DNA of 64,000 bases from an uncultured Clostridia bacterium (GCA_944360115.1 CALVTH010000003.1:6746-70745); one strand, 5' to 3'. Counted from the stretch's first letter, positions 2,995-34,231 are shown. Numbers and translations are program-made. Notes: generated from the letters alone by a model not told the origin.

Positions 2995-3060
2995 CGGCGC
3001 GAAAACGCCCCGCCGCTCCGCCCTGAACATAAAACTCCGCCCCGGGACGGGACAAGGACT

Positions 3061-4554
3061 ATGACGACAAACAAAGACCAAAGGAAATTCGACACCAAAG
3101 TTCAGTATCTGCAATACAAAGTGTTGCGCGAAGTCGCGCGCGGCGCGCTCAACGACAATCTTCTGGAGAACATCACGGACATTCCCAAGACCATTATCCC
3201 CGGCAATGTCCCGACGATGCGCTGCTGCGTGTACAAGGAACGCGCAATCATCGCCGAGCGCGTCAAGCTCGCCATGGGCGGCGACCGCTCCAACCCCAAT
3301 GTCATCGAAGTCATCGAGATAGCCTGCGACGACTGCCCCACGGGCGGTTACGAGGTCACCAACGCCTGCCGCGGGTGTCTGGCGCACCGTTGCGAGGATG
3401 TGTGCCGCCGCAACGCCATATCCTTCGACCACCAGCAGAAGGCGCACATCGACAAGAACCTGTGCGTGGAGTGCGGTCAGTGCGCCAAGGTGTGCCCGTA
3501 CAGCGCGATAGTGTCCCGCCGCCGTCCCTGCGAGAATTCCTGCAAGGTCAAGGCGATTTCCATGACGGACGGCAAGGCAGCCTGCATAGACAACAACAAG
3601 TGCATTTCCTGCGGCGCCTGCGTCTATCAGTGCCCCTTCGGCGCAATCATCGACAAATCTTTCCTGCTCGATGTCATCGACATGATGAAAAAGAGCAAGA
3701 ACAACACGGCATACAAGATGTACGCCGTAGTCGCCCCGTCCATTGCCAGCCAGTTCACCTACGCCAAACTCGGTCAGGTCATCACCGGCATAAAGAAACT
3801 GGGATTCTTCAGCGTGGTCGAAGCCGCTCTCGGCGCGGATATGGTGGCGTACAAGGAATCCGCCGAACTCGTCGAAAAGGGCTTCCTCACCTCGTCGTGC
3901 TGCCCCGCTTTCGTCGATTACATCCGCAAACAGTTCCCCGACCTCTCCTCTCACATCTCGCACAACCTCTCGCCCATGGCGACCATTGCCAAATACATCA
4001 AGGAGACCTCCTCGCCCTGCAGAGTCGTTTTCATCGGACCGTGCACGGCGAAGAAAATGGAATTCCAGAAGCCCGAAGTGCGCCCCTACATCGACTCCGT
4101 CATCACCTTCGAGGAGTTGCAGGCGTTCTTCGACGCGGCGGGCGTGGACATCACCACCCTGCACGAGGGAGTGCTGGACAACGCATCCTACTTCGGCAGA
4201 ATATTCGCCAGAAGCGGCGGCATAACCGACGCAGTCGGTCAGGCGCTCAAGGAACAGGGTCTGGACAAGGATTTCGACTACAATCCCGTCACCTGCGACG
4301 GCATAGAGGCGTGCCGCACGGCATTGCTCAAGAAATCCAAAGGCGTGCTGCCCAACAATTTCATCGAAGGCATGGCGTGCGTCAACGGCTGTATCGGCGG
4401 CGCGGGTTGTCTCACCCACGGCGAGAAAAACAAGACCGAGGTGGACATCTACGGCAGGCAGGCTATGGAAAAGAGCATTTCCGACGCAATCAGCGTGCTG
4501 CACCTGTCCTCCGACGACAAAAAACCCGACTCTTCCCCCGCAAAAAACGGTTGA
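3061..4554 (+). CDS. Catalytic-type [FeFe]-hydrogenase with N-terminal ferredoxin-type clusters
   Basis: 497-aa ORF. Several CxxCxxCxxxCP motifs. H-cluster motifs TSSCCP, GPCTAKKME and MACVNGCIGGAGC retain both cysteines. Confidence 0.85.
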   Translation: MTTNKDQRKFDTKVQYLQYKVLREVARGALNDNLLENITDIPKTIIPGNVPTMRCCVYKERAIIAERVKLAMGGDRSNPNVIEVIEIACDDCPTGGYEVTNACRGCLAHRCEDVCRRNAISFDHQQKAHIDKNLCVECGQCAKVCPYSAIVSRRRPCENSCKVKAISMTDGKAACIDNNKCISCGACVYQCPFGAIIDKSFLLDVIDMMKKSKNNTAYKMYAVVAPSIASQFTYAKLGQVITGIKKLGFFSVVEAALGADMVAYKESAELVEKGFLTSSCCPAFVDYIRKQFPDLSSHISHNLSPMATIAKYIKETSSPCRVVFIGPCTAKKMEFQKPEVRPYIDSVITFEELQAFFDAAGVDITTLHEGVLDNASYFGRIFARSGGITDAVGQALKEQGLDKDFDYNPVTCDGIEACRTALLKKSKGVLPNNFIEGMACVNGCIGGAGCLTHGEKNKTEVDIYGRQAMEKSISDAISVLHLSSDDKKPDSSPAKNG

Positions 4555-4579
4555 CATAGCCGTCGGGCGGTTTTATATT
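4551..4579 (+). promoter_or_regulatory. Sigma-70-type promoter for the aro operon leader
   Basis: TTGACA (4551-4556), 17 nt spacer, TATATT (4574-4579). It overlaps the hydrogenase stop codon. Confidence 0.5.
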
Positions 4580-4594
4580 GATAGCGAGGCAAAT

Positions 4595-4678
4595 ATGAAG
4601 AACTTTTCTTTCGACGCGTACTACTTTTACTTTAAGGGCTTTTATCTCGAAAGCCCCGCTTTCGGTATGCGCGGATAA
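4595..4678 (+). CDS. Phe/Tyr-rich leader peptide (27 aa), MKNFSFDAYYFYFKGFYLESPAFGMRG
   Basis: Hand-translated; too short for the ORF track. GAGG lies 6 nt upstream of the ATG. 10 of 27 residues are F or Y, and 7 of the 9 residues 9-17. It sits between the promoter and an intrinsic terminator, upstream of the aroF-tyrA-...-pheA operon. Confidence 0.6.
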   Translation: MKNFSFDAYYFYFKGFYLESPAFGMRG

Positions 4679-4709
4679 GGAAGAAAGTTTTCTCCTTACG
4701 GAATAAGGA

Positions 4710-4741
4710 CCGCCGTACCGAAAGTACGGCGGTTTTGTTTT
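4710..4741 (+). terminator. Intrinsic terminator acting as the attenuator of the aro operon
   Basis: Stem CCGCCGTAC (4710-4718), loop CGAAA, stem GTACGGCGG (4724-4732), then TTTTGTTTT. The upstream segment CTTTCGGTA (4659-4667) is the exact complement of TACCGAAAG (4716-4724), which is a candidate antiterminator. Confidence 0.65.
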
Positions 4742-4819
4742 GGGCGGGCCGCGCTGTCCGCCCGCAGAACACGGGGCGGCTCCGCAAGCCGCGCAGGGGA
4801 CGGCGTCCCGAGAGGAATT

Positions 4820-5836
4820 ATGATTATAGTAGTCAAGAACAATCCCGACAAAAAACAAATGGACAACCTCGTCAAGTGGATAAAGGGACTGGGGCTGGAC
4901 ATCCACATGAGCCGCGGCGACAACACCACCATTATGGGACTTGTCGGCGACACTTCCGTCGTCGACGAGGATTTGCTGCGCTCCCTCGACATAGTCGAGT
5001 CCGTCAAGCGGATTCAGGAGCCTTTCAAGAACGCCAACCGCAAATTCCACCCCGAGGACACCGTCGTCGATGTGGGCGGGCACAAGTTCGGCGGCGGACA
5101 TTTCCAGTTCATCGCGGGTCCCTGCTCCGTTGAGAGCGAGGAACAGCTGATCACCGTCGCGAAAGCCGTCAAAGCGGCGGGCGCGACCATTCTCCGCGGC
5201 GGCGCGTACAAGCCCCGCACTTCGCCCTACGCTTTCCAGGGACTCAAGGAAGAGGGACTGAGACTGCTCTCCGTCGCCAAGAAGGAGACGGGTATGCCCG
5301 TCTGCACCGAAATCGTCGACATACGCTGCCTCGACCTGTACGAGGATGTCGACATCATTCAGGTGGGCGCGCGCAATATGCAGAACTTCGAATTGCTCAA
5401 GGAACTGGGCAGAACCAAAAAACCGATCCTGCTCAAGCGCGGGCTCGCCGCCACCATAGAGGAGTGGCTGATGAGCGCGGAGTACATCATGTCCGAGGGC
5501 AACACCGACATCATTCTGTGCGAGCGCGGCATACGCACCTTCGAGCCGTATACGCGCAACACCCTCGACCTGTCGGCAATCCCCGTTCTGAAGGAACTCA
5601 CTCACCTGCCCGTGCTGGTCGACCCCAGCCACGCTTCGGGACACGCGCGCCTCGTCCTGCCCCTTTCCCTCGCCGCCGTCGGCGCGGGCGCGGAAGGTCT
5701 GGAAATCGAAGTGCACAACGATCCCCCGCACGCTCTGTCGGACGGCGCGCAGTCCCTGCGTCCCGAGCAGTTCGACGACCTCGTGCGCAGAGTTGATGTG
5801 ATGTTGCCCGTCGTCGGCAAGGAGAGAGACAGATGA
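4820..5836 (+). CDS. aroF: 3-deoxy-7-phosphoheptulonate (DAHP) synthase, type I-beta with an N-terminal ferredoxin-like regulatory domain
   Basis: 338-aa ORF. GAGAGG RBS. Motifs of the Thermotoga-type DAHPS/KDO8PS family (GPCSVES, GAYKPRTSPY, VDPSH). Confidence 0.9.
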   Translation: MIIVVKNNPDKKQMDNLVKWIKGLGLDIHMSRGDNTTIMGLVGDTSVVDEDLLRSLDIVESVKRIQEPFKNANRKFHPEDTVVDVGGHKFGGGHFQFIAGPCSVESEEQLITVAKAVKAAGATILRGGAYKPRTSPYAFQGLKEEGLRLLSVAKKETGMPVCTEIVDIRCLDLYEDVDIIQVGARNMQNFELLKELGRTKKPILLKRGLAATIEEWLMSAEYIMSEGNTDIILCERGIRTFEPYTRNTLDLSAIPVLKELTHLPVLVDPSHASGHARLVLPLSLAAVGAGAEGLEIEVHNDPPHALSDGAQSLRPEQFDDLVRRVDVMLPVVGKERDR

Positions 5837-6714
5837 AAGAAACGCGCGTGGGCATAATAGGTCTCGGACTTATGGGCGGCTCGCTGGGGCGCGCTCTCGT
5901 GCGCGCAGGCGGCTATAAAGTGTATGCCGCGGACGCCGACGAGGAAGCCATGCTCAAAGGCGCCCTGCTGAACGCATACGACGAAAGGCTGACCGACGAC
6001 AACGCCCGCGGGCTGGACATACTCGTGCTCGCCGTGACGCCGTCGCAGATGAGAGGGCTTTTCGACCGCTTCCTGCCCCTTCTGAAAGAGGGCGCGCTCG
6101 TCAGCGATGTCGCGGGCGTCAAACGCCCCGTCGTCGCGCTCATGGAAGAATACTCCGCCAAATATCCCGCCCTGTCGTTCTGCGGAGCGCACCCCATGGC
6201 GGGCAGGGAATTCAGCGGCGTGGCGCACTCCACGGCTTCCCTGTACGAGAACGCTTCGGTGCTGCTCGTGCCCGTGCACACTCCCCTCGAAGAACTGTCC
6301 GCACTCAAGGCGATGTACCTCGCGGCTGGCGCGGAAGGCGTGCTCGTGACAACCGCCGAGGAACACGATATAATGATTGCGTACACCTCGCAGCTGGCGC
6401 ATGTCGTGTCGTCGGCTTATGTGCGCGCCGAAAGCGCGGAGAAGCATTACGGATACTCGGCGGGCAGTTTCCGCGACATGACGCGCGTCGCCCGCATGAA
6501 CTCCGCAATGTGGACGGAACTCATGGGCGAAAACGCCGACAATCTCTCCCGCGAAGTGCGCGCCCTTGCGGCGCGACTGCTCGAATACGCCGACGCCCTC
6601 GACAGCGGCGACTCCGCCGCGCTGTACGAGCTGCTGGACGCGGGCAACCGCACCAAGCTGTCGGTGGAGAAGGACAGGATAAAGAAAACCCGCAGCGTGT
6701 TCGACGGCGAATGA
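5833..6714 (+). CDS. tyrA: Prephenate dehydrogenase
   Basis: The ATG overlaps the aroF stop (ATGA). GIIGLGLMGGSLG Rossmann motif and a GAHPMAG motif. Confidence 0.85.
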   Translation: MKETRVGIIGLGLMGGSLGRALVRAGGYKVYAADADEEAMLKGALLNAYDERLTDDNARGLDILVLAVTPSQMRGLFDRFLPLLKEGALVSDVAGVKRPVVALMEEYSAKYPALSFCGAHPMAGREFSGVAHSTASLYENASVLLVPVHTPLEELSALKAMYLAAGAEGVLVTTAEEHDIMIAYTSQLAHVVSSAYVRAESAEKHYGYSAGSFRDMTRVARMNSAMWTELMGENADNLSREVRALAARLLEYADALDSGDSAALYELLDAGNRTKLSVEKDRIKKTRSVFDGE

Positions 6715-6834
6715 CCGCGACCGCTTCGCGTATACTCCGCAAAAGCGGTGTTTATGCGCAATAAACGACATATAAAACGCGTTTTGCGGCAATATGCTCG
6801 CCGCAAGACGCACCCGAAGCAAGGGGGAACGCAA

Positions 6835-7869
6835 ATGGAAATCACCGTGAAAGCAGGCACACGCACCTATCCCGTAATCGTCGAACGCGGCTTGACCGAC
6901 AGGCTCGCCGAGGCGCTGGCGCCTTACGCCGCGGGCAGAAAAGTTGCCGTCGTGACCGACGACAATGTGGCAAAACTGTGGCTGCCGCGGTTGCTTGCCG
7001 CATTGCCCGAGGGCACTCCCGTTTACACGCTGCCCCACGGCGAAAACAGCAAGAACTGGGAGACGGCGGGCAAAATCGTGGAATGGCTGGCGGCGAACAA
7101 ACTGACGCGCACGGACATCGTGGCGGCTTTCGGCGGCGGCGTGGTAGGCGACATAACCGGCTTTGCCGCAAGCGTGTATATGCGCGGCATAGATTATGTG
7201 CAGATTCCCACCACCCTGCTCGCGGGCATAGACTCGTCCGTGGGCGGCAAGACCGCCGTCGACCTGTCGGCGGGCAAAAACCTGGCGGGCAGAATCTATC
7301 CTCCCGCCGCCGTGCTTTTCGACCCCGACATACTGTCCACCCTGCCCCCCACCGAATGGAAGTGCGGCATAGGCGAGGCGGTCAAGTACGCCGTGCTCGC
7401 GGGCGGCGAAATCTTCGACATAATGGAAGACGACCTGAAAAAGGGAGACAACCTCGAAAGGCTGGTCGCCCTCTGCGTGGACTACAAGAGGCGCGTCGTG
7501 GAAGCCGACGAGAACGAAGCGGGCGAGCGTCGTCTCCTCAATCTCGGGCACACGATAGGCCACGCCATAGAAGCCGAAAGCGGGCTGGGATTCCCGCACG
7601 GCGTATGCGTGGCAATGGGCATTGCCGTCATAGCGCGCGCCTGCATAAGGGGCGGACTGCTGGGCAAGGACGATTATCTGCGCATAATGTCGCTGTTGCA
7701 GAAATACGGTTTCCCCGAATGTCCCTATTCCGTCCGCGCAATGCTCCCGCGGCTGGCGCACGACAAAAAACTGACGGACGGCACCCTGAAAGCCGTCGTC
7801 ATACGCTCGGTGGGCAACTGCGAAATCAAGGAGATGTCCCTCGACGAAGCGGAGAAATTTCTCGTATGA
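6835..7869 (+). CDS. aroB: 3-dehydroquinate synthase
   Basis: Internal ATG of track ORF 6748..7869, chosen because AAGGGGGA precedes it and the N-terminus MEITVKAG.. is typical. GGGVVGDITGFAA and LNLGHTIGHAIE motifs. Confidence 0.85.
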   Translation: MEITVKAGTRTYPVIVERGLTDRLAEALAPYAAGRKVAVVTDDNVAKLWLPRLLAALPEGTPVYTLPHGENSKNWETAGKIVEWLAANKLTRTDIVAAFGGGVVGDITGFAASVYMRGIDYVQIPTTLLAGIDSSVGGKTAVDLSAGKNLAGRIYPPAAVLFDPDILSTLPPTEWKCGIGEAVKYAVLAGGEIFDIMEDDLKKGDNLERLVALCVDYKRRVVEADENEAGERRLLNLGHTIGHAIEAESGLGFPHGVCVAMGIAVIARACIRGGLLGKDDYLRIMSLLQKYGFPECPYSVRAMLPRLAHDKKLTDGTLKAVVIRSVGNCEIKEMSLDEAEKFLV

Positions 7870-9128
7870 AGATACGCATCGAAGCAAGCACCCTGCACGG
7901 CACCGTGGCCGCGGTGCCGTCCAAATCCCACGCGCACCGCGTGCTGGTTGCGGCGGCGTTGTCCGACGCGCCGTGCAAGGTGATATGTCCCGCCGTGTCC
8001 GACGACATCGAAGCCACCGTGCGATGTCTCGTCGCCCTCGGCGCGGAGATAACCCGCACGACGGACGGCTTCTCGGTGAAGCCCGTGACGGAGGCGCGCA
8101 AAGGCGTCACCCTCGACTGCGGCGAAAGCGGCACCACCCTGCGTTTTATGTTGCCCGTGTCCTGCGCTCTCGGCGCGGACGCGCGCCTCGTCGGGCGCGG
8201 CAGGCTTCCCCTCCGTCCCATAGGCGGGCTAGCCGACACTCTCGCGGCGGCGGGCGTGGAATTTTCGGCAACTTCCCTGCCCCTCTCCGCTAAAGGCAGA
8301 CTGGCGGCGGGGGAATACGAGGTGGACGGCTCGGTGAGTTCGCAGTACATAAGCGGAATGTTGCTCGCTCTCGGCGCGCTCGGCGGTCGCTCCACCCTGC
8401 GCACGCAGGGCAAAGCCGTCTCCCGCGGGTATGTGGATATGACCCTGTCCGTGCTCGACGCTTTCGGAGTGAAAGTTGCCGTTTCGACGGCGGGAGACCT
8501 GTTCGAGATCCAAGGCGACGGTTTCCGCTCTCCCCGCGAAATCGCGGTGGAGGGCGACTGGTCGGGAGCGGCGTTTCCCATTGCGGCGGGCGTGCTTGCA
8601 GGCGACATCACAGTCACGGGACTCAACCCCGACAGCACCCAACGCGACAAGAAAATCGCCGATGCGGTGCGGCTTATGGGCGGCGACATCACCGTGACGG
8701 ACGACGGCGTGCGCGCAAAGAAAAGCGCGCTCCGCGCCGTTGCGACGGACATAGACGACACCCCCGACATCGCGCCCGTGCTGTCCGTGCTTATGGCGGC
8801 GGCGGAGGGCGACGGCGTAATGACGGGAGTCGGGCGACTGCGCGACAAGGAAAGCGACCGCCTTGCGGCAATAATAAGCAACCTTGCCGCAATGGGCGCG
8901 GGCGCAACCGCGGACGGCGATTCCCTGACCGTGCACGGCACGGGCGGCACGCTCGTTCGGAATTTCGTCGCCGAAGGTTTCGGCGACCACAGAATGGTAA
9001 TGTCCGCGGCGGTGGCGGCGTACGCGGTCGGCGGCGAAGTGACCGACGCCGAAGCCGTGGCGAAATCCTATCCCGCGTTTTTCGCGGATATGGCGACACT
9101 CGGAGGAAAGACAGATGAACCCGTTTGA
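7866..9128 (+). CDS. aroA: 3-phosphoshikimate 1-carboxyvinyltransferase (EPSP synthase)
   Basis: The ATG overlaps the aroB stop (ATGA). PSKSHAHRVL, GESGTTLRF and LRDKESDRL motifs. In frame within track ORF 6978..9128. Confidence 0.9.
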   Translation: MKIRIEASTLHGTVAAVPSKSHAHRVLVAAALSDAPCKVICPAVSDDIEATVRCLVALGAEITRTTDGFSVKPVTEARKGVTLDCGESGTTLRFMLPVSCALGADARLVGRGRLPLRPIGGLADTLAAAGVEFSATSLPLSAKGRLAAGEYEVDGSVSSQYISGMLLALGALGGRSTLRTQGKAVSRGYVDMTLSVLDAFGVKVAVSTAGDLFEIQGDGFRSPREIAVEGDWSGAAFPIAAGVLAGDITVTGLNPDSTQRDKKIADAVRLMGGDITVTDDGVRAKKSALRAVATDIDDTPDIAPVLSVLMAAAEGDGVMTGVGRLRDKESDRLAAIISNLAAMGAGATADGDSLTVHGTGGTLVRNFVAEGFGDHRMVMSAAVAAYAVGGEVTDAEAVAKSYPAFFADMATLGGKTDEPV

Positions 9129-10209
9129 TGTGCTCAGCGTGGAAATACGCGGCGAATCGCACTCCCCCTGCATTTCGGTGGAGATAGGCAATCTGCCGCT
9201 CGGGGAAAGTTTCGCGTTTGCCGAGACCGAGGAATGCCTGGCGCGCAGGAAGAGCGGAAAATATCTCTTCTCCACTCCCCGCCGCGAGGACGACTCGCCG
9301 GTGTGGGAGAGCGGCGTCGAAGCGCGCGGCGACGAAGGCGTGATTACCGGCACGGTGAAGGCGCGTATCGACAACAGAAACATCCGTCCCGCCGACTACA
9401 CCTACACGCGCACCCCCCGTCCGTCGCACGCCGATTACACCTCTTTCGTGAAAGACGGCGCGGACGCGGCGGCTTCGGGCGGCGGCAGATTCTCGGGCAG
9501 AATGACCGCGCCGCTCGTGATAGCGGGCGCGATAGCCAAGAGTCTGCTCCGCAAACGCGGCGTGGAAGTGGCGGCGTACATCTCGCGGCTGGCGGGCGTA
9601 TCGGGCAAAAAGTCCGACTGCGACATACCCTCCCCCGACGAAATCCGCGCCTGTCTGGACCTGCCCCTGCCCATGATAACGGGCGGCGAGGAAGCGGCGG
9701 CAAAAGTGGCGGAAATCGCAAAGCGCGGCGACAGCGCCGGCGGCGTGGTGGAATGTGTGGCATACGGTTTGCCCGCGGGTCTCGGCGACAATCTGTGGCA
9801 GGGACTGGAAAGCAAAATCTCCGCCGTGCTGTACGGCATACCCGCCGTCAAGGGCGTGGAATTCGGCGCGGGATTCGCAATCGCGGATATGACGGGCGCC
9901 GTCGCCAACGACGCTTTCGTGATAAAGGACGGCGCGGTGGCGACCGCGACCAACAACGCGGGCGGCATAAACGGCGGCATATCCAACGGTATGCCCCTGG
10001 TGGTGCGGGCGGCTTTCCGTCCCACGCCGTCGGTATCCCTGCCGCAACGCACCGTCGACCTGACCACGATGACGGAGACGGAGATAAGCGTGAAAGGACG
10101 GCACGACGCAACGGTGGTGCCGCGCGCGACCGTGGTGACGGAGTGTGCCGTCGCCCTGGCGCTGTATGACGAAATGCTGAAACGGGACCGTGAAAACAAG
10201 CGTCCTTAA
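9115..10209 (+). CDS. aroC: Chorismate synthase
   Basis: 364-aa ORF. GGAGGA RBS. GESHSP, RPSHADY and GGISNGMP motifs. Overlaps the aroA end by 14 nt. Confidence 0.9.
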   Translation: MNPFDVLSVEIRGESHSPCISVEIGNLPLGESFAFAETEECLARRKSGKYLFSTPRREDDSPVWESGVEARGDEGVITGTVKARIDNRNIRPADYTYTRTPRPSHADYTSFVKDGADAAASGGGRFSGRMTAPLVIAGAIAKSLLRKRGVEVAAYISRLAGVSGKKSDCDIPSPDEIRACLDLPLPMITGGEEAAAKVAEIAKRGDSAGGVVECVAYGLPAGLGDNLWQGLESKISAVLYGIPAVKGVEFGAGFAIADMTGAVANDAFVIKDGAVATATNNAGGINGGISNGMPLVVRAAFRPTPSVSLPQRTVDLTTMTETEISVKGRHDATVVPRATVVTECAVALALYDEMLKRDRENKRP

Positions 10210-10219
10210 GGAGTTGAAA

Positions 10220-11365
10220 ATGATTGAGGAACTGAGGAACAAAATCGACGCCATTGACGACAAAATCGCCGCGTTGTACCTCGAGCGACAAGCCGTCGTC
10301 AGGGAGATAGGCGAGGAAAAAGCTCTCAACCGCAAAGCCGTCGCCGACCCGTCCCGCGAAAAGAAAATCATTGCCCGCGTGACAAAACAGGCTGATGAAA
10401 GTCAAAAAATGTATCTTAAACGCGTGTTTGAGACGATTATGGAGACTTCGCGGTCGTATCAACGGCAGATTGTCACGCCCGTGACCCCCCTCACCGACAC
10501 CCTGCACCGAGTGCTTATGGAGGGCAAGAAATATTTCCCCGTCAGCAGCAGCGTGGCGTGTCAGGGCGTGGAGGGAAGTTATTCGTCCATTGCCGCGGAC
10601 AAGCTGTTCGAGATTGCCGACATCACCTATTTCAAGAATTTCGAAGGGGTGTTTCAGGCAGTCGAAAAGGGGCTGTGCGATTACGGCGTGCTGCCCATAG
10701 AGAACAGCGCCGCGGGCAGCGTGGGCGCGGTGTACGACCTGATGAAGAAACACAACTTCTACATCGTGCGCAGCATCAAACTCAAGGTGTGTCATCACCT
10801 GCTCGCAAAGAAAGGCGTGAAGCTGTCGCAGATACGCGAGGTGTATTCGCACGAGCAGGCGCTCGCGCAATGCTCGGAGTTCATAAGCAAACTCGGCGGC
10901 AATGTCAAGGTGTATCCCTGCGCCAACACCGCCGTCGCCGCCGAAACGGTGGCGGCGTCCGACCGCGACGACATAGCCTGCATTTCCTCGCGCAACTGCG
11001 CCGACCTCTACGACCTCGGGATACTCGCGGGCAACATACAGAACAACGATTCCAACTATACGCGGTTCATCTGTATAAGCAAGAACCTCGAGATTTTCGC
11101 TCCCGCCAACCGCATAAGCGTCATGATGACGCTGCCCCACGAGTCTGGCTCGCTCAATCGCGTGCTGAACAAATTCTCCACTCTCGGGCTCAACCTCACC
11201 AAACTGGAATCCCGTCCCCTGCCCGGCACCGACTTCGAATTCCTGTTCTACTTCGATTTCGAGGGGCGTATCGACGACGCCGACACCCTCGCGCTCATAG
11301 CCGAGCTCGACCAGGGCAGCGAACAGTTCACCTTCCTCGGCAGTTACTGCGAGGTGGCGCAATGA
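10220..11365 (+). CDS. pheA: Bifunctional chorismate mutase / prephenate dehydratase (P-protein)
   Basis: The ATG at 10220 has AAGGAG upstream. N-terminal CM helix (LRNKIDAIDDKIAALYLER), PDT domain (GVLPIENSAAGSV) and C-terminal ACT (ESRP..FEFLFYFDFEG). Confidence 0.85.
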   Translation: MIEELRNKIDAIDDKIAALYLERQAVVREIGEEKALNRKAVADPSREKKIIARVTKQADESQKMYLKRVFETIMETSRSYQRQIVTPVTPLTDTLHRVLMEGKKYFPVSSSVACQGVEGSYSSIAADKLFEIADITYFKNFEGVFQAVEKGLCDYGVLPIENSAAGSVGAVYDLMKKHNFYIVRSIKLKVCHHLLAKKGVKLSQIREVYSHEQALAQCSEFISKLGGNVKVYPCANTAVAAETVAASDRDDIACISSRNCADLYDLGILAGNIQNNDSNYTRFICISKNLEIFAPANRISVMMTLPHESGSLNRVLNKFSTLGLNLTKLESRPLPGTDFEFLFYFDFEGRIDDADTLALIAELDQGSEQFTFLGSYCEVAQ

Positions 11366-12615
11366 AGTACGGACTCATCGGCAATCCTCTCGGGCACAGC
11401 CGCTCCCCTTTTCTTCACGAGTTTTTCGGGACGGCTCCCTACGACCTCGTGCAGATTGCCGAAAGCGACCTCGACGCGTTCTTCGCGCGGCGCGATTTCG
11501 CGGCGATAAATGTCACCATACCCTACAAGCGCGCGGTGATGTCCTGTCTCAACGGCATATCCGCGGTCGCCGAGGAATGTGACGCCGTCAACACCGTCGT
11601 CAACCGCGACGGAAAACTGTACGGGTTCAACACCGACCTTTTCGGCATGGAATTCTCGCTCGCGCGGGCGGGGATAGCGCTCAAAGGCAAGAATGTCGTC
11701 ATACTCGGCAGCGGCGGCACCTCGCACACCGCGCAGGTGCTTGCCCGCCACGGCGGAGCGCAGTCCGTAAAAGTCGTCAGCAGGACGGGACAGTACAACT
11801 ACAGGAATCTCCTGCCCGTGCGCGACGCCGAAGTGCTGTTCAACACCACCCCCGTGGGTATGTTCCCCGACATGGCGGCGGCGCCCGTCGACCTCGACTG
11901 CTTCCCCGCTCTCGAAGGAATCTTCGACGCCGTTTACAATCCCCTGCGCACCCGACTTGTGCAACAGGCCGAAGCGAGAGGAATAAAACACGCCGACGGG
12001 CTGCTCATGCTCGCGGCGCAGGCGAAGGCGTCCTCCGACCTTTTCAGGGGCGCACCCATGCCCTCCTCCGACGACGCGGACGCGGCGCGGACAATTCTCG
12101 CCGCCCGCGACGCCCTGCGGCGCTCTTTGACCAACATAATTCTGGTGGGTATGCCCGGCTCGGGCAAGACCACCGTCGGCGCGGCGGTGGCAAGGCTGCT
12201 GGGACGCGACTTTTACGACGCCGACGCCGAAATCGTCAAGGCGACGGGCAAAAGCATACCGGACATTTTCGCCGAAGAGGGCGAAGAGGGCTTCCGCAGG
12301 CGCGAAAGCGAGACGGTGCGCGCGCTTTCCGAGAAGCAGGGCGCGGTGATTGCCACGGGCGGCGGCGCGCCGCTCCGCGACGAAAACAGGCTCAACCTGC
12401 GCGCAAACGGTTTCGTCGTCTACCTCGTGCGCGACCTGTCCGCTCTGCCCACCGAAGGCAGACCCCTGTCCCTCGGCGCCGACCTCGGCGCGATGTACCG
12501 CGACCGTCATCCCGTCTACTCGGCGTTTGCCGACATCACCGTGGACAACTCCGCCGCTCCCGAGGACGCGGCGCGCGAAATAACGGAGAAATTCAATGAA
12601 AGTTCTTGTGATTAA
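11362..12615 (+). CDS. Shikimate dehydrogenase fused to shikimate kinase (AroE-AroK)
   Basis: The ATG overlaps the pheA stop (ATGA). N-terminal GLIGNPLGHSRSP and NVTIPYK (AroE). C-terminal GMPGSGKTTVG Walker A plus RRRESE (AroK). One uninterrupted frame. Confidence 0.85.
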   Translation: MKYGLIGNPLGHSRSPFLHEFFGTAPYDLVQIAESDLDAFFARRDFAAINVTIPYKRAVMSCLNGISAVAEECDAVNTVVNRDGKLYGFNTDLFGMEFSLARAGIALKGKNVVILGSGGTSHTAQVLARHGGAQSVKVVSRTGQYNYRNLLPVRDAEVLFNTTPVGMFPDMAAAPVDLDCFPALEGIFDAVYNPLRTRLVQQAEARGIKHADGLLMLAAQAKASSDLFRGAPMPSSDDADAARTILAARDALRRSLTNIILVGMPGSGKTTVGAAVARLLGRDFYDADAEIVKATGKSIPDIFAEEGEEGFRRRESETVRALSEKQGAVIATGGGAPLRDENRLNLRANGFVVYLVRDLSALPTEGRPLSLGADLGAMYRDRHPVYSAFADITVDNSAAPEDAAREITEKFNESSCD

Positions 12616-13036
12616 CGGGCCCAACCTCAATATGCTCGGCGTGCGCGAGCCCGACCTGTACGGCAGGCGCGATTACGCCGCGCTCGTCGCGTTCATAGGC
12701 GAACAGGCGGCAAAGCGCGGCATCGTCGCCGACTGCTTCCAGTCCAATTCCGAGGGCGACATCGTCACCGCGATTCAGCAAGCCCTCGGCAAATACGACG
12801 GCATAGTCATCAACGCCGCCGCCTACACCCACACTTCCGTCGCCATTCTCGACGCCCTGAAGTCCGTCGCCCTGCCCGCCGTCGAGGTGCACCTCACCGA
12901 CATTTCGGCGCGCGAGGAATTCAGACGGTTCAGTTTCGTGTCGCTGTACGCGAGCAAGACGATATGCGGCAAGGGCTTCGACGGCTATGCCGAGGCTCTC
13001 GACGCGCTCGTCGGCATCGTCGGGAACAAAGCGTAA
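12596..13036 (+). CDS. aroQ: Type II 3-dehydroquinate dehydratase
   Basis: 146-aa ORF with INGPNLNMLGVREP, QSNSEG and NAAAYTHTSVA motifs. Confidence 0.9.
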   Translation: MKVLVINGPNLNMLGVREPDLYGRRDYAALVAFIGEQAAKRGIVADCFQSNSEGDIVTAIQQALGKYDGIVINAAAYTHTSVAILDALKSVALPAVEVHLTDISAREEFRRFSFVSLYASKTICGKGFDGYAEALDALVGIVGNKA

Positions 13037-13113
13037 CCCTCTCCCCGTCCCGTCTTCGCGGCGCGGCGGAATAAGTTCCGCCGCCGCGGGCATACTATCT
13101 CCGCGAGGTGGAT

Positions 13114-13272
13114 ATGAAAAAGAAGAAAACCGAACGGAGAGGAATCAGGGGCACGCTTGTCGACGGCAACCAGTCGGAAACGCAGGTTGCAAGCGCGGGC
13201 GAATGGGAAAACGCCGCTTTCCGCGGCGACCGCGACGGCAGACTGAAAGTGCCGCGCGAAAAGCGTGACTGA
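13114..13272 (+). CDS. Small basic hypothetical protein (52 aa)
   Basis: Hand-translated: MKKKKTERRGIRGTLVDGNQSETQVASAGEWENAAFRGDRDGRLKVPREKRD. GAGGTG sits just upstream and a terminator follows at 13320-13350. No recognised family. Confidence 0.35.
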   Translation: MKKKKTERRGIRGTLVDGNQSETQVASAGEWENAAFRGDRDGRLKVPREKRD

Positions 13273-13319
13273 CCGCCGCAGGCGGAAAAACGCATACTTA
13301 AAAAACATACCGAAAAACG

Positions 13320-13350
13320 AACGCGCCCGAAACGGGCGCGTTTTGTTGTT
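13320..13350. terminator. Bidirectional intrinsic terminator
   Basis: ACGCGCCCG-AAA-CGGGCGCGT, flanked by an A-run upstream and TTTGTTGTT downstream. It lies between the small ORF (+) and tetR (-). Confidence 0.6.
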
Positions 13351-13417
13351 GCGATTTCGTTTTTGCGGCGCGGAAGGCGCGGTGCGGACGCAATCTCCGC
13401 CGGAGCGCAACGCCTGC

Positions 13418-14008
13418 TCAGGCGCAGTATTCCGCCAGCGTCATCATGGCTATGGCGCTCAGTTGCTTGCGAATGTCCTCGAGGCTGTAATTCGGCTCAT
13501 CGAGCAACCACCATTTGATGAGGGAAATTATGCCGCCCGCGAAAAATTCCGCGAGGATGTCGGACGGAAGCGAGCCTCTGCCGTCGCGGGGACGGGCGTG
13601 ACTCAGGCGGTTGATGATGTTGTGCGTGAGGATTTCGTGCACCTTGTCGAACACCAGCGCGCTGTCCGCCTTGAGAATTATGGTGCGTATGCGCCTGCGG
13701 TTGTTGTCGAGGAAGCATATACCGAGGTCCATTACCTCGTTGTAGTATGTGATGAGGTCGCTCTCGCCGTGGGCGCGTTTGACCTGCTCGTGCAGACCGT
13801 ACATGATGTCGCTTATGCACTTGTCGAGCAGGCTGTATTTATCCTCGAAATGGGTATAGAAAGTGCCGCGGTTGATGAGAGCGCGGTCACAGATGTCTAT
13901 GACGGTGATTGCGCCGAACGATTTCTCGTCGAGCAGCTCGTAGAAGGCGTCGACGATTGCTTTCTGCGTGCGCTGTATGCGCAAATCGGTCTTGTTGCTG
14001 TTCTTCAT
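13418..14008 (-). CDS. TetR/AcrR-family transcriptional regulator
   Basis: 196-aa product starting MKNSNKTDLRIQRTQKAIVDAFYELL... with an HTH region (ITVIDICDRALINRGTFYTHF). The start overlaps the bioY stop by 4 nt. AGGAGG RBS. Confidence 0.85.
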   Translation of the reverse strand: MKNSNKTDLRIQRTQKAIVDAFYELLDEKSFGAITVIDICDRALINRGTFYTHFEDKYSLLDKCISDIMYGLHEQVKRAHGESDLITYYNEVMDLGICFLDNNRRRIRTIILKADSALVFDKVHEILTHNIINRLSHARPRDGRGSLPSDILAEFFAGGIISLIKWWLLDEPNYSLEDIRKQLSAIAMMTLAEYCA

Positions 14009-14616
14009 AATTTCCTCCTGTCCAACCCCGTGCTGTCGAGCGCACGGACGCGATTTCCCCCCGCGAGGGGATTGGCGAGCCTTTTGGACACCACTTCCGC
14101 CGCCTTGCAGGCGAGAATGACGGAGAGTATGTCCTTGGCGATATACGGCACGGAAACGGCAAGCGCCGAAGCGCCCCAACCGTTGCCCGTGACGAGAGCG
14201 TACTGCACTATGCCCGCAATGTGGCATATCACCAGTCCGAGCAAACCCGAGGCAATGCGGGTGACGGGATTGCGCCCGCCCCAGCTTGCGCCCGAGAAAG
14301 CGGCGAGGAAGAGAAATCCCCATATAAACCCGCCGGTGACTCCGACCAGCTTCTGTATGCCGCCCGTGAAATTAGCGAACACGGGCGCGCCCACCGCGCC
14401 GAGCAGAACATAAATGCCTATTGCCGCAAGCCCGTATTTCCACCCGAGGAAAAACCCCGCGAACGCAATAGCGAATGTCTGCAGAGTGAACGGCACTCCG
14501 GAGGGCATGGGAATGGCGATTTGCGACATACAGGCGGTTAAAGCGGCGAAAAGCGCAATATAAACCGTCTGTTTGGTGCGTTCTGCCGCGGTCAGTTTCT
14601 TGTCGTGCGTTCTCAT
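14005..14616 (-). CDS. bioY: Biotin transporter BioY (ECF S-component)
   Basis: 203-aa polytopic membrane ORF with BioY-like motifs (PFTLQTFAI, GAPVFANFTGG). The start overlaps the rocD stop (ATGA). Confidence 0.85.
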   Translation of the reverse strand: MRTHDKKLTAAERTKQTVYIALFAALTACMSQIAIPMPSGVPFTLQTFAIAFAGFFLGWKYGLAAIGIYVLLGAVGAPVFANFTGGIQKLVGVTGGFIWGFLFLAAFSGASWGGRNPVTRIASGLLGLVICHIAGIVQYALVTGNGWGASALAVSVPYIAKDILSVILACKAAEVVSKRLANPLAGGNRVRALDSTGLDRRKL

Positions 14617-15800
14617 GCCAAAGCCTTCTTTATCCTTTCGATTGCGTCGTCCAGCTCGTCGTCGGGAATGTTGACGGGCGGCGCAAACCTTATCGTGTTG
14701 CCGTGGGTGTCCTTTGCCAGCACACCGTTTGCAACCAGTTTCTTTATGTACGGCGCGGCGGACGAGAAGAACTCGACGGCGACCAGCAGCCCCCTGCCGC
14801 GCACCTCTTTTATGTCGGGATTGTCTATCGAGCGCAAGGCGTCGGACAGGATTTTGCCCTTCCTGCGCGCCTCGGCGGGATAGTCGTCGCGGACGAGGAT
14901 TTCCATTGCCTTGAGCGCCACGGCACAGGCAAGTGGATTGCCCCCGAAAGTGGAGCCGTGCGACCCCGGCTCGAATACGCCGAGTATTTCACGGGACGAC
15001 GCTATCGCGCTGACGGGCATTATTCCGCCGCCGAGCGCCTTGCCCAGCACATAGATGTCGGGACGGACATTCTCGTGCAGGCAGGAGAACATATCGCCCG
15101 TGCGCGCAAACCCCGTCTGCACTTCGTCGGCAATCATGAGAGCACCCTTCTCCGTGCACATCCTGCGCACTTCGGCAAGATAGCCGTCGGGCGGCACTAT
15201 CACTCCCGCTTCGCCCTGTATCGGCTCGAGAATGACGGCGACGGTGTACGGAGTGAACGCCCTTTCCATTGCTTCCGCGTCGCCGTACGGCACGGCGGTG
15301 AAGCCCTCGGTAAAGGGGGCGTAACCCGCCCTCGCCGTGGGATCGGTGCTCATGGAAATCACGGTCGTCGTCCTGCCGTGGAAATTGCCCTCGCAGCAGA
15401 TGATGTGCTGTTTGCCGTCGGGCACTCCTTTTACGAACGCCCCGTAACGACGCGCGGTTTTCAACGCCGTTTCGACGGCTTCCGCGCCCGTGTTCATGGG
15501 CAACACGGCCTGCATGCCCGTGAGTTCTGCGAGCCGCTTGCAGAATTCGCCCAGCAGTTCGTTGTGGAAGGCGCGGGAGGTCAGCGTGACTTTGTCCAGC
15601 TGCGCCTTTGCCGCCGCCACGATTTCGGGGTGCAGATGACCGAAATTGAGGGCGCTGTACGCCGAGAGCATATCGTAATATTCCCTGCCCTCGGGGTCGC
15701 GGACGCGCGCTCCGCGCGCCTCGGAGACCACCACCTCTTCGGGGTGGTAGTTGTGCGCGCAATACTCTTCTGTGACGGCTATTATTTTCTCGGAATCCAT
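14613..15800 (-). CDS. rocD: Ornithine--oxo-acid aminotransferase
   Basis: 395-aa product from the internal ATG at 15800 of track ORF 14613..16691. Collinear with B. subtilis RocD as I recall it (NYHP, DMLSAYSALN, LTSRAFHN, GNFHGRT, EPIQGEAG, DEVQTG, GSHGSTFGGNPLA). Confidence 0.85.
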   Translation of the reverse strand: MDSEKIIAVTEEYCAHNYHPEEVVVSEARGARVRDPEGREYYDMLSAYSALNFGHLHPEIVAAAKAQLDKVTLTSRAFHNELLGEFCKRLAELTGMQAVLPMNTGAEAVETALKTARRYGAFVKGVPDGKQHIICCEGNFHGRTTTVISMSTDPTARAGYAPFTEGFTAVPYGDAEAMERAFTPYTVAVILEPIQGEAGVIVPPDGYLAEVRRMCTEKGALMIADEVQTGFARTGDMFSCLHENVRPDIYVLGKALGGGIMPVSAIASSREILGVFEPGSHGSTFGGNPLACAVALKAMEILVRDDYPAEARRKGKILSDALRSIDNPDIKEVRGRGLLVAVEFFSSAAPYIKKLVANGVLAKDTHGNTIRFAPPVNIPDDELDDAIERIKKALA

Positions 15801-15856
15801 ACTTTTACCCGCAGTCGGCGCGCCCCGTATCGGAGACAAACCGCACCCGTCTGCCC

Positions 15857-15875
15857 GTGTCGCGTTATTCGACAC
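15857..15875. promoter_or_regulatory. Candidate operator palindrome in the rocD-bioY-tetR leader
   Basis: GTGTCG-N7-CGACAC inverted repeat, immediately downstream of the predicted minus-strand -10 box. Confidence 0.3.
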
Positions 15876-15887
15876 ATGTTTGCATAT

Positions 15888-15916
15888 ATGATAAACCAAT
15901 TCCCGCGCGCCGTCAA
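15888..15916 (-). promoter_or_regulatory. Promoter of rocD-bioY-tetR
   Basis: On the minus strand: TTGACG (15911-15916), 17 nt spacer, TATCAT (15888-15893). Confidence 0.45.
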
Positions 15917-15984
15917 TCAAGTGTGTGAAAAGGCGCATTTTCAAGGTTGTTCGCACGGCAAAGACGGCGGCAGTGGCGTTTTGT

Positions 15985-16013
15985 TTGCATAACTCGCCTT
16001 TCGGTTGTATAAT
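15985..16013 (+). promoter_or_regulatory. Promoter of the SDR gene
   Basis: TTGCAT, 17 nt spacer, TATAAT. Confidence 0.45.
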
Positions 16014-32266: not shown

Positions 32267-33109
32267 TCACACTCCGCTGTACGCGTTGAAGCCGCCGTCG
32301 ATGGGGATGACGACACCCGTGATGAAAGAGGCTTCCTCGTCGTTGAGCAGCAGTTTGACCGCGCCCATAATCTCCTCCACTTCGCCGAAACGCCCCATGG
32401 GCGTGGCGCGGAGAATCTTGTCCGTGCGCGCGGTCGGCGAGCCGTCCTTGTCGAAGAGAAGCGCGCGGTTCTGGTTGGTGACGAAAAACCCGGGGGCGAT
32501 TGCGTTGACGCGTATGCCCGCGGGCGCGAAGTGCACGGCAAGCCATTCCGTGAAATTGCTGATTCCCGCCTTCGCCGCGCTGTACGCGGGAATTTTGGTG
32601 AGCGGGGTGTAGGCGTTCATCGAAGAGATGTTGAGCACCGAGCAACCCTGTCTCCCCACCATTTTTTCCACGAACACCTGCGTGGGCAGGAAAGTGCCGA
32701 TGAAATTGAGCTCGAACACAAAACGCACGCCGCCGTCCTCGAGAGCGAAGAAATCCTTGCCCACCTTGACATCGGGCAGACAGAATTCGTTGTCCGTGGT
32801 GGCGCGGGGGTTGTTGCCGCCCGCCCCGTTGATGAGGATGTCGCACAGCCCGAAATCCTTTTCCACGGCGTCGCGCACGGCGAGAAGGCTGGCTTTGTCC
32901 AGCACATTGCACTTGTAGGCGCGCGCCTTGCCGCCCGCGGCGTCGATGTCAGCCGCGACAGCCGCCGCCGCTTCTTCGTTGAGGTCGAGAAGAGCCAGAT
33001 TCGCGCCCGACGGAGCCAGCGCGCGCGCAATGGCGCCGCATATAACGCCGCCCGCGCCCGTTATGACGACCGTCTTGCCGCTGAGATCGATGTCGAATTT
33101 TTTGCCCAT
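32267..33109 (-). CDS. uxuB: SDR-type D-mannonate (fructuronate) oxidoreductase
   Basis: 280-aa SDR (TGAGGVICG, YSAAK), positioned between uxuA and eda as in other Firmicute uronate clusters. Confidence 0.7.
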   Translation of the reverse strand: MGKKFDIDLSGKTVVITGAGGVICGAIARALAPSGANLALLDLNEEAAAAVAADIDAAGGKARAYKCNVLDKASLLAVRDAVEKDFGLCDILINGAGGNNPRATTDNEFCLPDVKVGKDFFALEDGGVRFVFELNFIGTFLPTQVFVEKMVGRQGCSVLNISSMNAYTPLTKIPAYSAAKAGISNFTEWLAVHFAPAGIRVNAIAPGFFVTNQNRALLFDKDGSPTARTDKILRATPMGRFGEVEEIMGAVKLLLNDEEASFITGVVIPIDGGFNAYSGV

Positions 33110-33181
33110 ATACCGTCTCCTTCCGAACCGCGGCGCAAACCCGCTTCCGCGCGTCGCGCCGTCCCGTCCGTCAAGCCTGTT

Positions 33182-34231
33182 TTACTTTTTTTCTTTCATG
33201 CGGCGGAAGGTCTCCCAAACGCCGTTGATGTAACTGGCGCCCAGCGCGCGGTCGAAAAGTCCGTACCCGGGCTTGCCCGTCTCGCCCCATATCATTCTGC
33301 CGTGGTCGGGACGGACATATCCGTCGTAGTCGCAGTCGCTGAGGGCTTCGATTATGCCGATTATGTCGAGCGAGCCGCAATTCTGGTCGTGCGCCGTCTC
33401 CTCGAAACCGCCCTCGACGAGCCTGATGTTGCGGATGTGCATGAAATGTATCCTGCCCATGGCGGCGTATTTCCGCACGAGCGCGGCGACATCGGTATTC
33501 CTGTCCGCGCCGAGCGAGCCCGTGCAGAGGGTGAGTCCGTTGTAGGGGCTGTCGACGAGTTTGAGGAAGCGGTCGATGTTTTTCTCCGAGGTGATGATAC
33601 GCGGCAACCCGAAAATGCCCCACGGCGGGTCGTCGGGATGTATCGCCATTCTGACATCGCACTCCTCGGCGACGGGGATTATGCGAGAGAGGAAATAGCC
33701 GAGATTTTCGAACAATTTCTCGTCATCCACGGCTTTATACTGCTCAAACAGATGCTTCAAGTCCTCTTTGCGATAACTGCTGTCCCAGCCGGGGAGCGAC
33801 AGTTCGCCGTTGAGCGGGTCCATTTTCGCCAGCTGATCGGCATAGTACACCAGACTGTTGCTGCCGTCCGCCGCCACCTTGTCCAGCTGGGTGCGCGTCC
33901 AGTCGAACACGGGCATGAAGTTGTAGCAGATACATTTCACGCCCGCCCTGCCCAGTCGCCTTATGTTCTCGATGTAGGCGTCGATGTACTTGTCGCGGGT
34001 GGGCAACCCCAGTTTGATGTCCTCGTGCACGGGCACGCTTTCGATGACTTCCATTTTCAGCCCGTGAGACTCCGCGGCGTGTTTGAGCGCGAGTATGCTC
34101 TCGTTGCTCCACACCTCGCCGACGGGCACATCGTACACCGCTGTCACGACGCTGTACATATTGGGAATCTGCCTGATGTAGTCGAGGGGAATTCTGTCGC
34201 CCTCGCCGTACCAACGGAAGGTCATTTTCAT
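33182..34231 (-). CDS. uxuA: Mannonate dehydratase
   Basis: 349-aa ORF starting MKMTFRWYG, with a [13 protein letters not shown] motif. The start overlaps the uxaC stop (ATGA). Confidence 0.9.

Follow-up and report, generated by a model that had tools for sequence, protein, structure and literature searches.

A probable phenylalanine/tyrosine leader-peptide attenuator upstream of the aroF operon in an uncultured Clostridia bacterium

Transcription attenuation by a translated leader peptide is known in textbook form from trpL and pheL of E. coli, and textbooks tie it mainly to Proteobacteria. Here, we analyze a candidate of this kind in a stretch of 64,000 nucleotides (nt) from an uncultured Clostridia bacterium (GCA_944360115.1, CALVTH010000003.1:6746-70745; the whole stretch is called the window, and positions are counted from its first letter), where a short open reading frame (ORF) rich in phenylalanine (Phe) and tyrosine (Tyr) codons precedes an operon that begins with aroF. 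In C. glutamicum, a leader named aroR with a Phe-Tyr-Phe sequence lies upstream of aroF and, in the account available in PMC11802643, responds to limitation of Phe and not of Tyr (Neshat 2014, in PMC11802643). The candidate upstream-ORF (uORF) attenuator uORFC-13-1 was described exclusively upstream of aroF, with 24 representatives from Acholeplasma and unassigned environmental DNA; "at least one" Phe is coded, and the authors propose that the speed of Phe incorporation is sensed (PMC8632094). Among Firmicutes, histidine (His) leader peptides were proposed in the B. cereus group, Peptostreptococcaceae and Erysipelotrichales (PMC2965389, PMC9413887), and branched-chain amino acid (BCAA) leader peptides were shown in Listeria and S. 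aureus (PMC5864092, PMC5794164). Our literature search, which reached few subscription-journal papers, turned up no account of an aroF leader with a Phe/Tyr run in Clostridia.

A first-pass annotation of the window had proposed that the leader, together with a terminator and an anti-terminator, forms a Phe/Tyr-sensing attenuator, and had named RNA folding with and without ribosome masking and a comparison of related genomes as checks. The proposal is supported by masked folding, by conservation of the codon run and by conservation of the pairings. On sequence and modeling evidence, the element is very probably a leader-peptide attenuator of the ribosome-mediated type, which reads the supply of charged tRNA-Phe and tRNA-Tyr and governs transcription of aroF-tyrA-aroB-aroA-aroC-pheA-aroEK-aroQ. 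The operon makes Phe and Tyr and not tryptophan (Trp), which fits a leader without a Trp codon.

In the proposed mechanism, transcription would start from the promoter at 4551-4579, with translation of the 27-codon leader following immediately. Under a shortage of Phe or Tyr, the ribosome would stall between Y9 and Y17 (4619-4645) and leave region 2 (4658-4674) exposed to pair with 4709-4725 as this segment emerges; no terminator would form, and transcription would read through into aroF. An ample supply of both would let the ribosome advance to the last codons or the stop codon (4676-4678) and cover region 2 while 4709-4741 is transcribed, and with region 2 covered the terminator hairpin would form and transcription would end at the U-tract. 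We infer that such stalling takes place, that it is timed to suit the movement of RNA polymerase, and that the operon responds to Phe and Tyr in vivo.

The leader locus and its predicted ribosome-dependent folding

The locus begins with a predicted sigma-70-type promoter, TTGACA-N17-TATATT (4551-4579, plus strand), which lies where the first-pass annotation had placed it and matches 11/12 consensus positions; the -35 hexamer TTGACA lies at 4551-4556, the spacer is 17 nt, and the -10 hexamer TATATT lies at 4574-4579. This is the top-scoring promoter-like site on the plus strand within 3000-16000. The gene upstream encodes an Fe-only hydrogenase, whose stop codon TGA (4552-4554) falls within the -35 hexamer, and the predicted transcription start near 4586 gives a very short 5' untranslated region (UTR, about 8-9 nt). 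The Shine-Dalgarno (SD) motif GAGG of the leader ORF (4586-4589, plus strand) and its ATG at 4595 are where the first-pass annotation had put them, but the spacer between them is 5 nt (4590-4594) and not the 6 nt given there.

The leader ORF itself (4595-4678, plus strand; MKNFSFDAYYFYFKGFYLESPAFGMRG) can be read directly from the sequence as earlier described: 27 codons, among them 6 Phe and 4 Tyr and no Trp, closed by the stop codon TAA at 4676-4678. F4 and F6 (4604-4612) precede the regulatory codon run Y9 Y10 F11 Y12 F13 (K G) F16 Y17 (4619-4645, plus strand), the predicted stall site when Phe-tRNA or Tyr-tRNA is scarce. Phe and Tyr together account for 6.1% of residues in the genes of this genome, and the binomial probability of at least 10 such codons in 26 is 1.5e-6. 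The Phe codons of the leader are 4 TTT to 2 TTC against 15 to 92 in the genes, where TTT is rare (Fisher p = 0.007). Classical leaders tend to prefer rare codons for the regulatory amino acid; constraints on the RNA could be an alternative cause of this preference. One other short ORF with a Phe/Tyr run was detected on either strand of the 64 kb (33090-33233, plus strand; SLFYFFSF). It was rejected as a second leader: larger ORFs enclose it on both strands, and it is probably a chance out-of-frame reading.

The leader is followed by an intrinsic terminator, the attenuator (4709-4741, plus strand), with a stem of 10 base pairs (bp), the loop CGAAA and the U-tract TTTTGTTTT. A strong terminator had been placed at 4710-4741, and one is indeed present, with arms starting at 4709 and a hairpin energy of -19.5 kcal/mol (z = -5.9). 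An unprompted inverted-repeat search returned its arms, 4709-4718 and 4724-4733, as 100% complementary around a 5-nt loop. A simple terminator scanner overlooked the site, apparently because greedy stem extension through G-T pairs swallowed the T-run. Two further segments complete the switch. Region 2 (4658-4674, plus strand), the 5' strand of the anti-terminator, as supported by the inverted repeat and the duplex energy, occupies the last six codons of the leader ORF, and region 3 (4709-4725, plus strand), the 5' arm and loop of the terminator, is the strand common to anti-terminator and terminator. Within them, CTTTCGGTA (4659-4667) and TACCGAAAG (4716-4724) are perfectly complementary in antiparallel orientation over 9 nt; this complementarity had been pointed out before, and the inverted-repeat search recovered it independently. 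RNAduplex extends the anti-terminator to 14 bp with one bulge, pairing approximately 4660-4674 with 4710-4723 at -21.4 kcal/mol (z = -3.45 against shuffles), and the whole anti-terminator structure (4656-4725) reaches -29.3 kcal/mol (z = -4.7).

The chain of alternative pairings suggested farther upstream held in part. Its first member, hairpin A (GGGCUUUU / GAAAGCCC; 4636-4656, plus strand, within the leader ORF), joins GGGCTTTT at 4636-4643 with GAAAGCCC at 4649-4656 at -9.8 kcal/mol (z = -3.7), is present in the minimum free energy fold, and is kept in L081, the nearest relative, a metagenome locus described below. The second member, hairpin B (GAAAGC:GCTTTC, 4648-4654:4658-4664), folds in isolation (-8.5 kcal/mol), and was rejected as an anti-anti-terminator: in none of the ribosome states does its probability rise above about 0, and L081 has a weakened version of the pairing.

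For the folding of the window, a ribosome footprint of 31 nt was stepped codon by codon along the nascent RNA, whose 3' end was set at the terminator loop. The probability of the anti-terminator was 0.97-0.99 as long as the A-site stood on one of codons 1-18, among them all Phe and Tyr codons of the run, and 0 with the A-site on codons 20-28, including the stop codon. In these models, masking by the ribosome flips the RNA between anti-terminator and terminator in just the sense that had been predicted. Hairpin A melts from the A-site at codon 12 onward, and may be a pause or synchronization hairpin for RNA polymerase that the advancing ribosome would melt.

The same dependence was assessed across the family described in the next section, using nascent transcripts of 82 non-redundant loci and footprints of equal size in both states. 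Stalling the ribosome sequestered the 5' arm of the terminator more strongly than placing it at the stop codon in 52 loci, and less strongly in 6 (p = 5e-10); measured against RNA free of ribosomes, the stalled state sequestered the arm more in 41 loci and less in 3 (p = 9e-10). In these models, the latter difference is the predicted signature of an anti-anti-terminator formed by regions 1 and 2 in much of the family. The window shows the promoter-proximal ORF with its SD motif, the codons for the end products, the terminator, the anti-terminator and, in silico, a fold set by ribosome position, all of them features of classical attenuators. It lacks a region 1:2 anti-anti-terminator, a feature of the trp paradigm that not every attenuator has. 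As modeled, the window element looks like a three-strand switch without an anti-anti-terminator.

Conservation of the leader and its pairings in related Clostridia

Related loci were collected with the AroF protein. A scan of one genome per species gave 80 loci, the top match being 76% identical; nearly all are metagenome-assembled genomes (MAGs) of Clostridia, and Angelakisella massiliensis is among them. A metagenome scan gave 80 further loci, including L081 at 88%. A leader was defined as a short ORF starting with ATG, with at least 5 Phe or Tyr in 7 residues, at most 450 nt upstream of aroF. Such leaders were found in most of the 80 genome loci and in 46 of the 73 metagenome loci with enough upstream DNA, in total about 105 leaders at 153 aroF loci. 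The aromatic codon run, whose conservation the comparison of relatives was meant to reveal, is therefore retained at about two thirds of the loci. Elsewhere in the same loci, ORFs of this type occur at 0.007 per 450 nt per strand, which corresponds to an enrichment of about 100-fold. No leader was detected in the Bacteroidaceae loci, nor in two of the three Spirochaete-labelled loci, and L050 offered a weak candidate only.

The leaders are 14-42 residues long, with 19.7% Phe, 14.1% Tyr and 0.6% Trp, and the sole feature conserved over the roughly 105 members is a run of the YFYF type; there is no fixed sequence otherwise. Promoters matching at least 10 of 12 positions lie within 90 nt of the leader ATG in 79 of 102 members, against 2.4% of control windows, and an SD-like motif lies within 20 nt before the ATG in 85 of 102. 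Hairpins with a perfect stem and a T-run stand before aroF at 85 of the 105 leaders. Because the hydrogenase gene lies upstream in L081 alone among the relatives, the leader goes together with aroF rather than with its upstream neighbor.

The share of Tyr in the leader tracks gene order: the mean Y/(F+Y) is 0.45 where tyrA follows aroF (n = 70) and 0.28 where aroB follows directly (n = 10), in a statistic that ignores phylogeny. Nearly pure Tyr runs occur in L016, L029, L038, L039 and L046 (e.g., MSSSRFGYYYYYVLCSLCRA), and nearly all-Phe leaders in L065, L076 and L112, which suggests lineage-specific retuning of the sensed amino acid. A true T-box (93.6 bits) was detected in L068 at 5259-5503, downstream of aroF; this relative carries no Phe/Tyr leader, so both control systems occur in the clade.

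For the covariance model R1, 24 members of a single subfamily were used, and neither the window nor L081 was among them. Searched against both strands of the 64-kb window, it gave a single match at 4595-4742 over the full model (positions 1-171), with 28.9 bits and E = 3.6e-4, a value to be read as rough in a home-made model. In the 80 genome loci, R1 had 51 plus-strand matches, every one of them directly upstream of aroF.

The pairings were counted in the FGKA subfamily. The MAFFT alignment A2, comprising the window and this subfamily, misplaced the register of the window terminator, and for this reason the pair counts were made on alignment A3, which is free of the window and holds all four regions in register. 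Region 1 is UUUGCAGC, the F-A-A codons just 5' of the run; region 2 is GCUGCAAA, with GUUU before it; region 3 is CGCAGUGAAA, the 5' arm and loop of the terminator; and region 4 is CACUGCGG. The terminator helix 3:4 is paired in 94.6% of cells, with 53 double-change cells; 0 of 500 shuffles were as high, and slid partners gave 34-49%. The anti-terminator helix 2:3 is paired in 90.2%, compared with 85.6% for shuffled alignments (0/500 as high) and 33-56% for slid partners, and its covariation score is 0.312 versus 0.238 (1/500 shuffles as high). Helix 1:2 is paired in 79.2% (17/500 shuffles as high), with weak covariation support. In many relatives, namely those of the FGKA subfamily, region 1 appears from the sequence to pair with region 2, which would give the classical four-strand design. 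The leaders of this subfamily (e.g., L030 2827-2985 and L074 2779-2962) carry F-A-A-E before the run and F-G-K-A after it, and these residues coincide with regions 1 and 2 (UUUGCAGC / GCUGCAAA). Therefore, the apparent conservation of the peptide is probably conservation of RNA structure.

The lineage of the window (window, L081, L001-L004 and L008) has another core, ACCG/CGGT, with flanks that differ from locus to locus yet stay complementary: CTTTCGGTA:TACCGAAAG in the window, AATACGGT:ACCGTATT in L001, TATCGG:CCGATA in L002, TTTTGG:CCAAAA in L003 and ATCGGT:ACCGAT in L004. Among the complementary sequences of this subfamily are CTTTCG:CGAAAG and AATACGG:CCGTATT. In a cross-locus permutation, region 2 of the window fits its own terminator better than all 50 others (rank first of 51, z = -4.3), and for 19 of the 51 loci the cognate terminator came among the best five, a result that chance would give for about 5 loci. 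Throughout the subfamily, region 2 lies about -17 to +20 nt from the stop codon, a position that the footprint of a terminating ribosome covers or just reaches.

L081, the nearest relative, was compared with the window in detail. Positions 4617-4678 are almost identical, region 2 is identical, and TTGACA and the -10 hexamer are kept, while the flanks of the promoter, the N-terminal codons (the L081 peptide is MRNVDLTSYAYFYFKGFYFKSPVFGMRG), the spacer between stop codon and terminator and the spacer after the terminator have diverged. All four differences in the conserved stretch are non-synonymous, and hairpin A is kept through wobble pairing (GAAAG to AAGAG). The L081 terminator has a 6-nt deletion and a G-to-A change, by which a U·G pair of the anti-terminator becomes U-A, and both helices survive. 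From this pattern, as far as sequence comparison can tell, it is the RNA and the Phe/Tyr codons that appear to be under selection, not the peptide product. Taken with the A3 counts and the complementary flanks of the window's lineage, the pattern indicates that both pairings are maintained through differing sequences in the relatives, the second outcome that the comparison had been intended to detect.

Points against the attenuator and alternative explanations

Several observations weigh against the interpretation as a Phe/Tyr attenuator. In the window, the anti-terminator is the predicted fold of nascent RNA that carries no ribosome (P = 0.98). A convincing anti-anti-terminator is missing, as hairpin B stays unpopulated, so transcripts that are not translated should read through, and termination would need active translation of the leader. 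At full length, equilibrium favors the terminator in nearly all states, and since it does so once the 3' arm is present, the decision must be kinetic; full-length equilibrium folds were rejected as a discriminator for the dominance of these stable terminators, and nascent transcripts were folded in their place. A kinetic decision is common to all classical attenuators. A ribosome stalled at F23, a codon of region 2, would favor termination. If the predicted promoter is used, the SD motif sits at the extreme 5' end of the mRNA, which is unusual. The roughness of the E-values from the home-made R1 counts on the same side. Finally, RNA polymerase of B. subtilis is reported, in the citing source, to outrun the lead ribosome (Johnson 2020, cited in PMC9226507), and uncoupling of this type in the present lineage would make ribosome-mediated attenuation work poorly.

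Among the alternatives, the one that survives best, though still improbable, is that the attenuator is real and the leader acts as a nascent-peptide arrest sensor of the TnaC/SecM type, in which case the signal would be free Phe/Tyr or some other ligand and not a lack of charged tRNA. In its favor are the striking conservation of the YFYF alternation and a C-terminal half of the peptide that is near-identical in the window and L081. However, length (14-42 residues) and sequence vary freely outside the run, the distance from run to stop codon is variable, and the four differences between the window and L081 alter the peptide yet preserve the RNA pairing. The conserved non-aromatic codons (FAAE, FGKA) are accounted for by the region 1 and region 2 pairings, and induction by an excess of amino acids would be the wrong logic for a biosynthetic operon.

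Slightly less credible is a switch run by a trans-acting factor, whether a T-box-like tRNA contact, a TRAP-like protein or a small-molecule riboswitch, with the ORF being incidental. Its appeal comes from the aromatic genes of Firmicutes, which are classically controlled by T-box or TRAP, as reported in a citing paper (Panina 2003, cited in PMC1262725). Against it, Rfam 15 returned no family at gathering score over the whole 64 kb, including no tRNA, riboswitch or T-box; the T-box model RF00230 had no match at that score in the window, nor at E ≤10 in 4480-4900, and the Rfam leader families had none in 4480-4900 at E ≤10 and none in 20 relatives, the leaders of the relatives matching no Rfam family. 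Sub-threshold matches (e.g., BSR0602, 26 bits versus a gathering score of 191) were set aside as chance terminator look-alikes, and nothing relevant stood among the matches at E ≤10 in 4480-4900. Leaders controlled by TRAP contain about 9-11 (G/U)AG triplets spaced 2-3 nt apart. No such repeat array occurs here: 4580-4820 holds four triplets, the longest properly spaced chain is 1, and a TRAP site was rejected. The 5' UTR of about 9 nt and the element of 148 nt are too small for a T-box, and the ATG, the SD motif and the Phe/Tyr run are conserved at about 100 times background.

Coincidence is very unlikely. In this explanation, the hairpin would be the terminator of the hydrogenase gene or a constitutive partial terminator, and the Phe/Tyr ORF a chance frame. 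The hairpin does lie about 155 nt past the hydrogenase stop codon, and there is a weak terminator-like site at 4558-4572 in the promoter spacer. But a strong and conserved promoter separates the hydrogenase stop codon from the ORF, the Phe/Tyr codon content has the binomial probability given above (1.5e-6), R1 has a single match in the window, and ORF and terminator form a unit with aroF in more than 100 loci, of which one (L081) has the hydrogenase upstream; synteny, the low background rate of such ORFs and the R1 matches effectively refute the idea. Equally implausible is a functional hydrophobic micropeptide co-expressed with the operon beside unrelated hairpins. Conserved aromatic-rich small ORFs could in principle encode membrane-active peptides, but neither length nor sequence is conserved outside the codon run, the substitutions in the conserved part are non-synonymous, and the terminator always follows the ORF and would separate it from aroF.

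The operon, the family and known systems

The genes that the Phe/Tyr attenuator would control were identified by Pfam matches, all on the plus strand: aroF (4820-5836; 3-deoxy-D-arabino-heptulosonate 7-phosphate (DAHP) synthase with an FXD regulatory domain), tyrA (5833-6714), aroB (6748-7869), aroA (7866-9128), aroC (9115-10209), pheA (10190-11365; chorismate mutase-prephenate dehydratase, CM-PDT), an aroE-aroK fusion (11365-12615) and aroQ (12596-13036). The operon (4820-13036) covers all seven steps of the shikimate pathway plus tyrA and pheA, and the Pfam matches revealed no trp genes in the aroF-aroQ operon, in full agreement with the gene content first assigned to it. The N-terminal ferredoxin-like regulatory domain of the DAHP synthase (PF18152) spans residues 1-67; therefore, the first enzyme of the pathway may also be feedback-inhibited allosterically, and such feedback on the aroF product may be a second layer of control besides the attenuator. 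In the fusion, the N-terminal domain of shikimate dehydrogenase and shikimate kinase share a single ORF of 416 residues.

Between terminator and aroF lies a GC-rich spacer that includes the aroF SD motif GAGAGGA at 4810-4816 (4742-4819, plus strand); it showed no structure above composition (z = -0.33) and no second copy in the 64-kb window. Compared with L081, where aroF begins about 30 nt past the T-run, the window has a GC-rich insertion of about 50 nt at 4745-4795. Upstream, the promoter spacer and -10 hexamer resemble the 3' arm and U-tract of the terminator, as a direct repeat, GGCGGTTTTATATTG / GGCGGTTTTGTTTTG (4558-4580 versus 4728-4742). The weak terminator-like hairpin within this spacer (4558-4572), just past the hydrogenase stop codon, may double as the terminator of the hydrogenase gene. 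At the other end, a strong and apparently bidirectional terminator-like site with T-runs on both strands (GAACGCGCCCGAAACGGGCGCGTT, 13319-13343) is likely the operon terminator; it separates the aro operon from a convergent gene of the TetR family on the minus strand (13418-14323).

With moderate confidence, the window element can be regarded as a member of a large, uncurated Clostridial family of Phe/Tyr leader attenuators, which stands in place of a T-box at aroF in MAGs of Oscillospiraceae, Acutalibacteraceae, Christensenellaceae, Ruminococcus, Lachnospiraceae and Anaerovoracaceae and in the cultured Angelakisella massiliensis. The family would comprise two designs, a four-strand one and, in the lineage of the window, a three-strand one with default readthrough, in which termination would need a ribosome at the stop codon. 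Rfam 15 does not list the family, which may overlap uORFC-13-1. It would add an aromatic amino acid operon and an abundant class of gut anaerobes to the systems controlled by leader peptides. If this is true, its breadth implies that ribosomes keep pace with RNA polymerase in these Clostridia, unlike the runaway transcription of B. subtilis, whose uncoupling report raised the question of coupling in Clostridia. Because attenuation needs the lead ribosome close behind RNA polymerase, such elements would be natural in vivo reporters of transcription-translation coupling in Clostridia, and the cultured member A. massiliensis (L023) makes a direct test possible. Annotation of the leaders would avoid their being mis-called as hypothetical small proteins, and would improve predictions of Phe/Tyr prototrophy and regulation in models of the gut microbiome.

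Among known systems, the T-box likewise reads tRNA charging through competition between a terminator and an anti-terminator; in contrast to the leader described here, it binds uncharged tRNA directly and takes about 200 nt with conserved motifs; Rfam detects none in the window. With E. coli pheL-pheA (and pheST), the window shares a short ORF with Phe codons, alternative hairpins, and termination favored by a ribosome at the stop codon (PMC3082878, PMC11802643). Unlike the window, pheL belongs to a gammaproteobacterium, has Phe codons only, controls a single gene of the terminal branch, and uses four strands with termination as the default. As the first-pass annotation noted, aromatic operons of Firmicutes are usually described as under T-box or TRAP control; leader-peptide attenuation nonetheless has precedents in the phylum in the His and BCAA leaders cited above. 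These share the mechanism proposed for the window and replace T-box control, but they serve other amino acids and operons, are found mostly in Bacilli and Peptostreptococcaceae, and include neither an aroF leader nor a mixed Phe/Tyr one.

Likened by description, the apparent closest functional analogue is aroR of C. glutamicum, where, as proposed for the window, ribosome stalling raises transcription of the aroF operon (PMC11802643). In what this source describes, the actinobacterial leader has three regulatory codons and a different operon, whereas the leader of the window has 10 Phe/Tyr codons before the whole pathway with tyrA and pheA. In a related lineage, the closest published candidate is, as a descriptive match, uORFC-13-1, which resembles the window, when the two descriptions are compared, in its -35 and -10 boxes, ribosome-binding site, start codon, uORF with Phe codons, adjacent terminator and aroF. 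The element of the window thus joins a well-known kind of regulator, and probably does so as part of a large new family.

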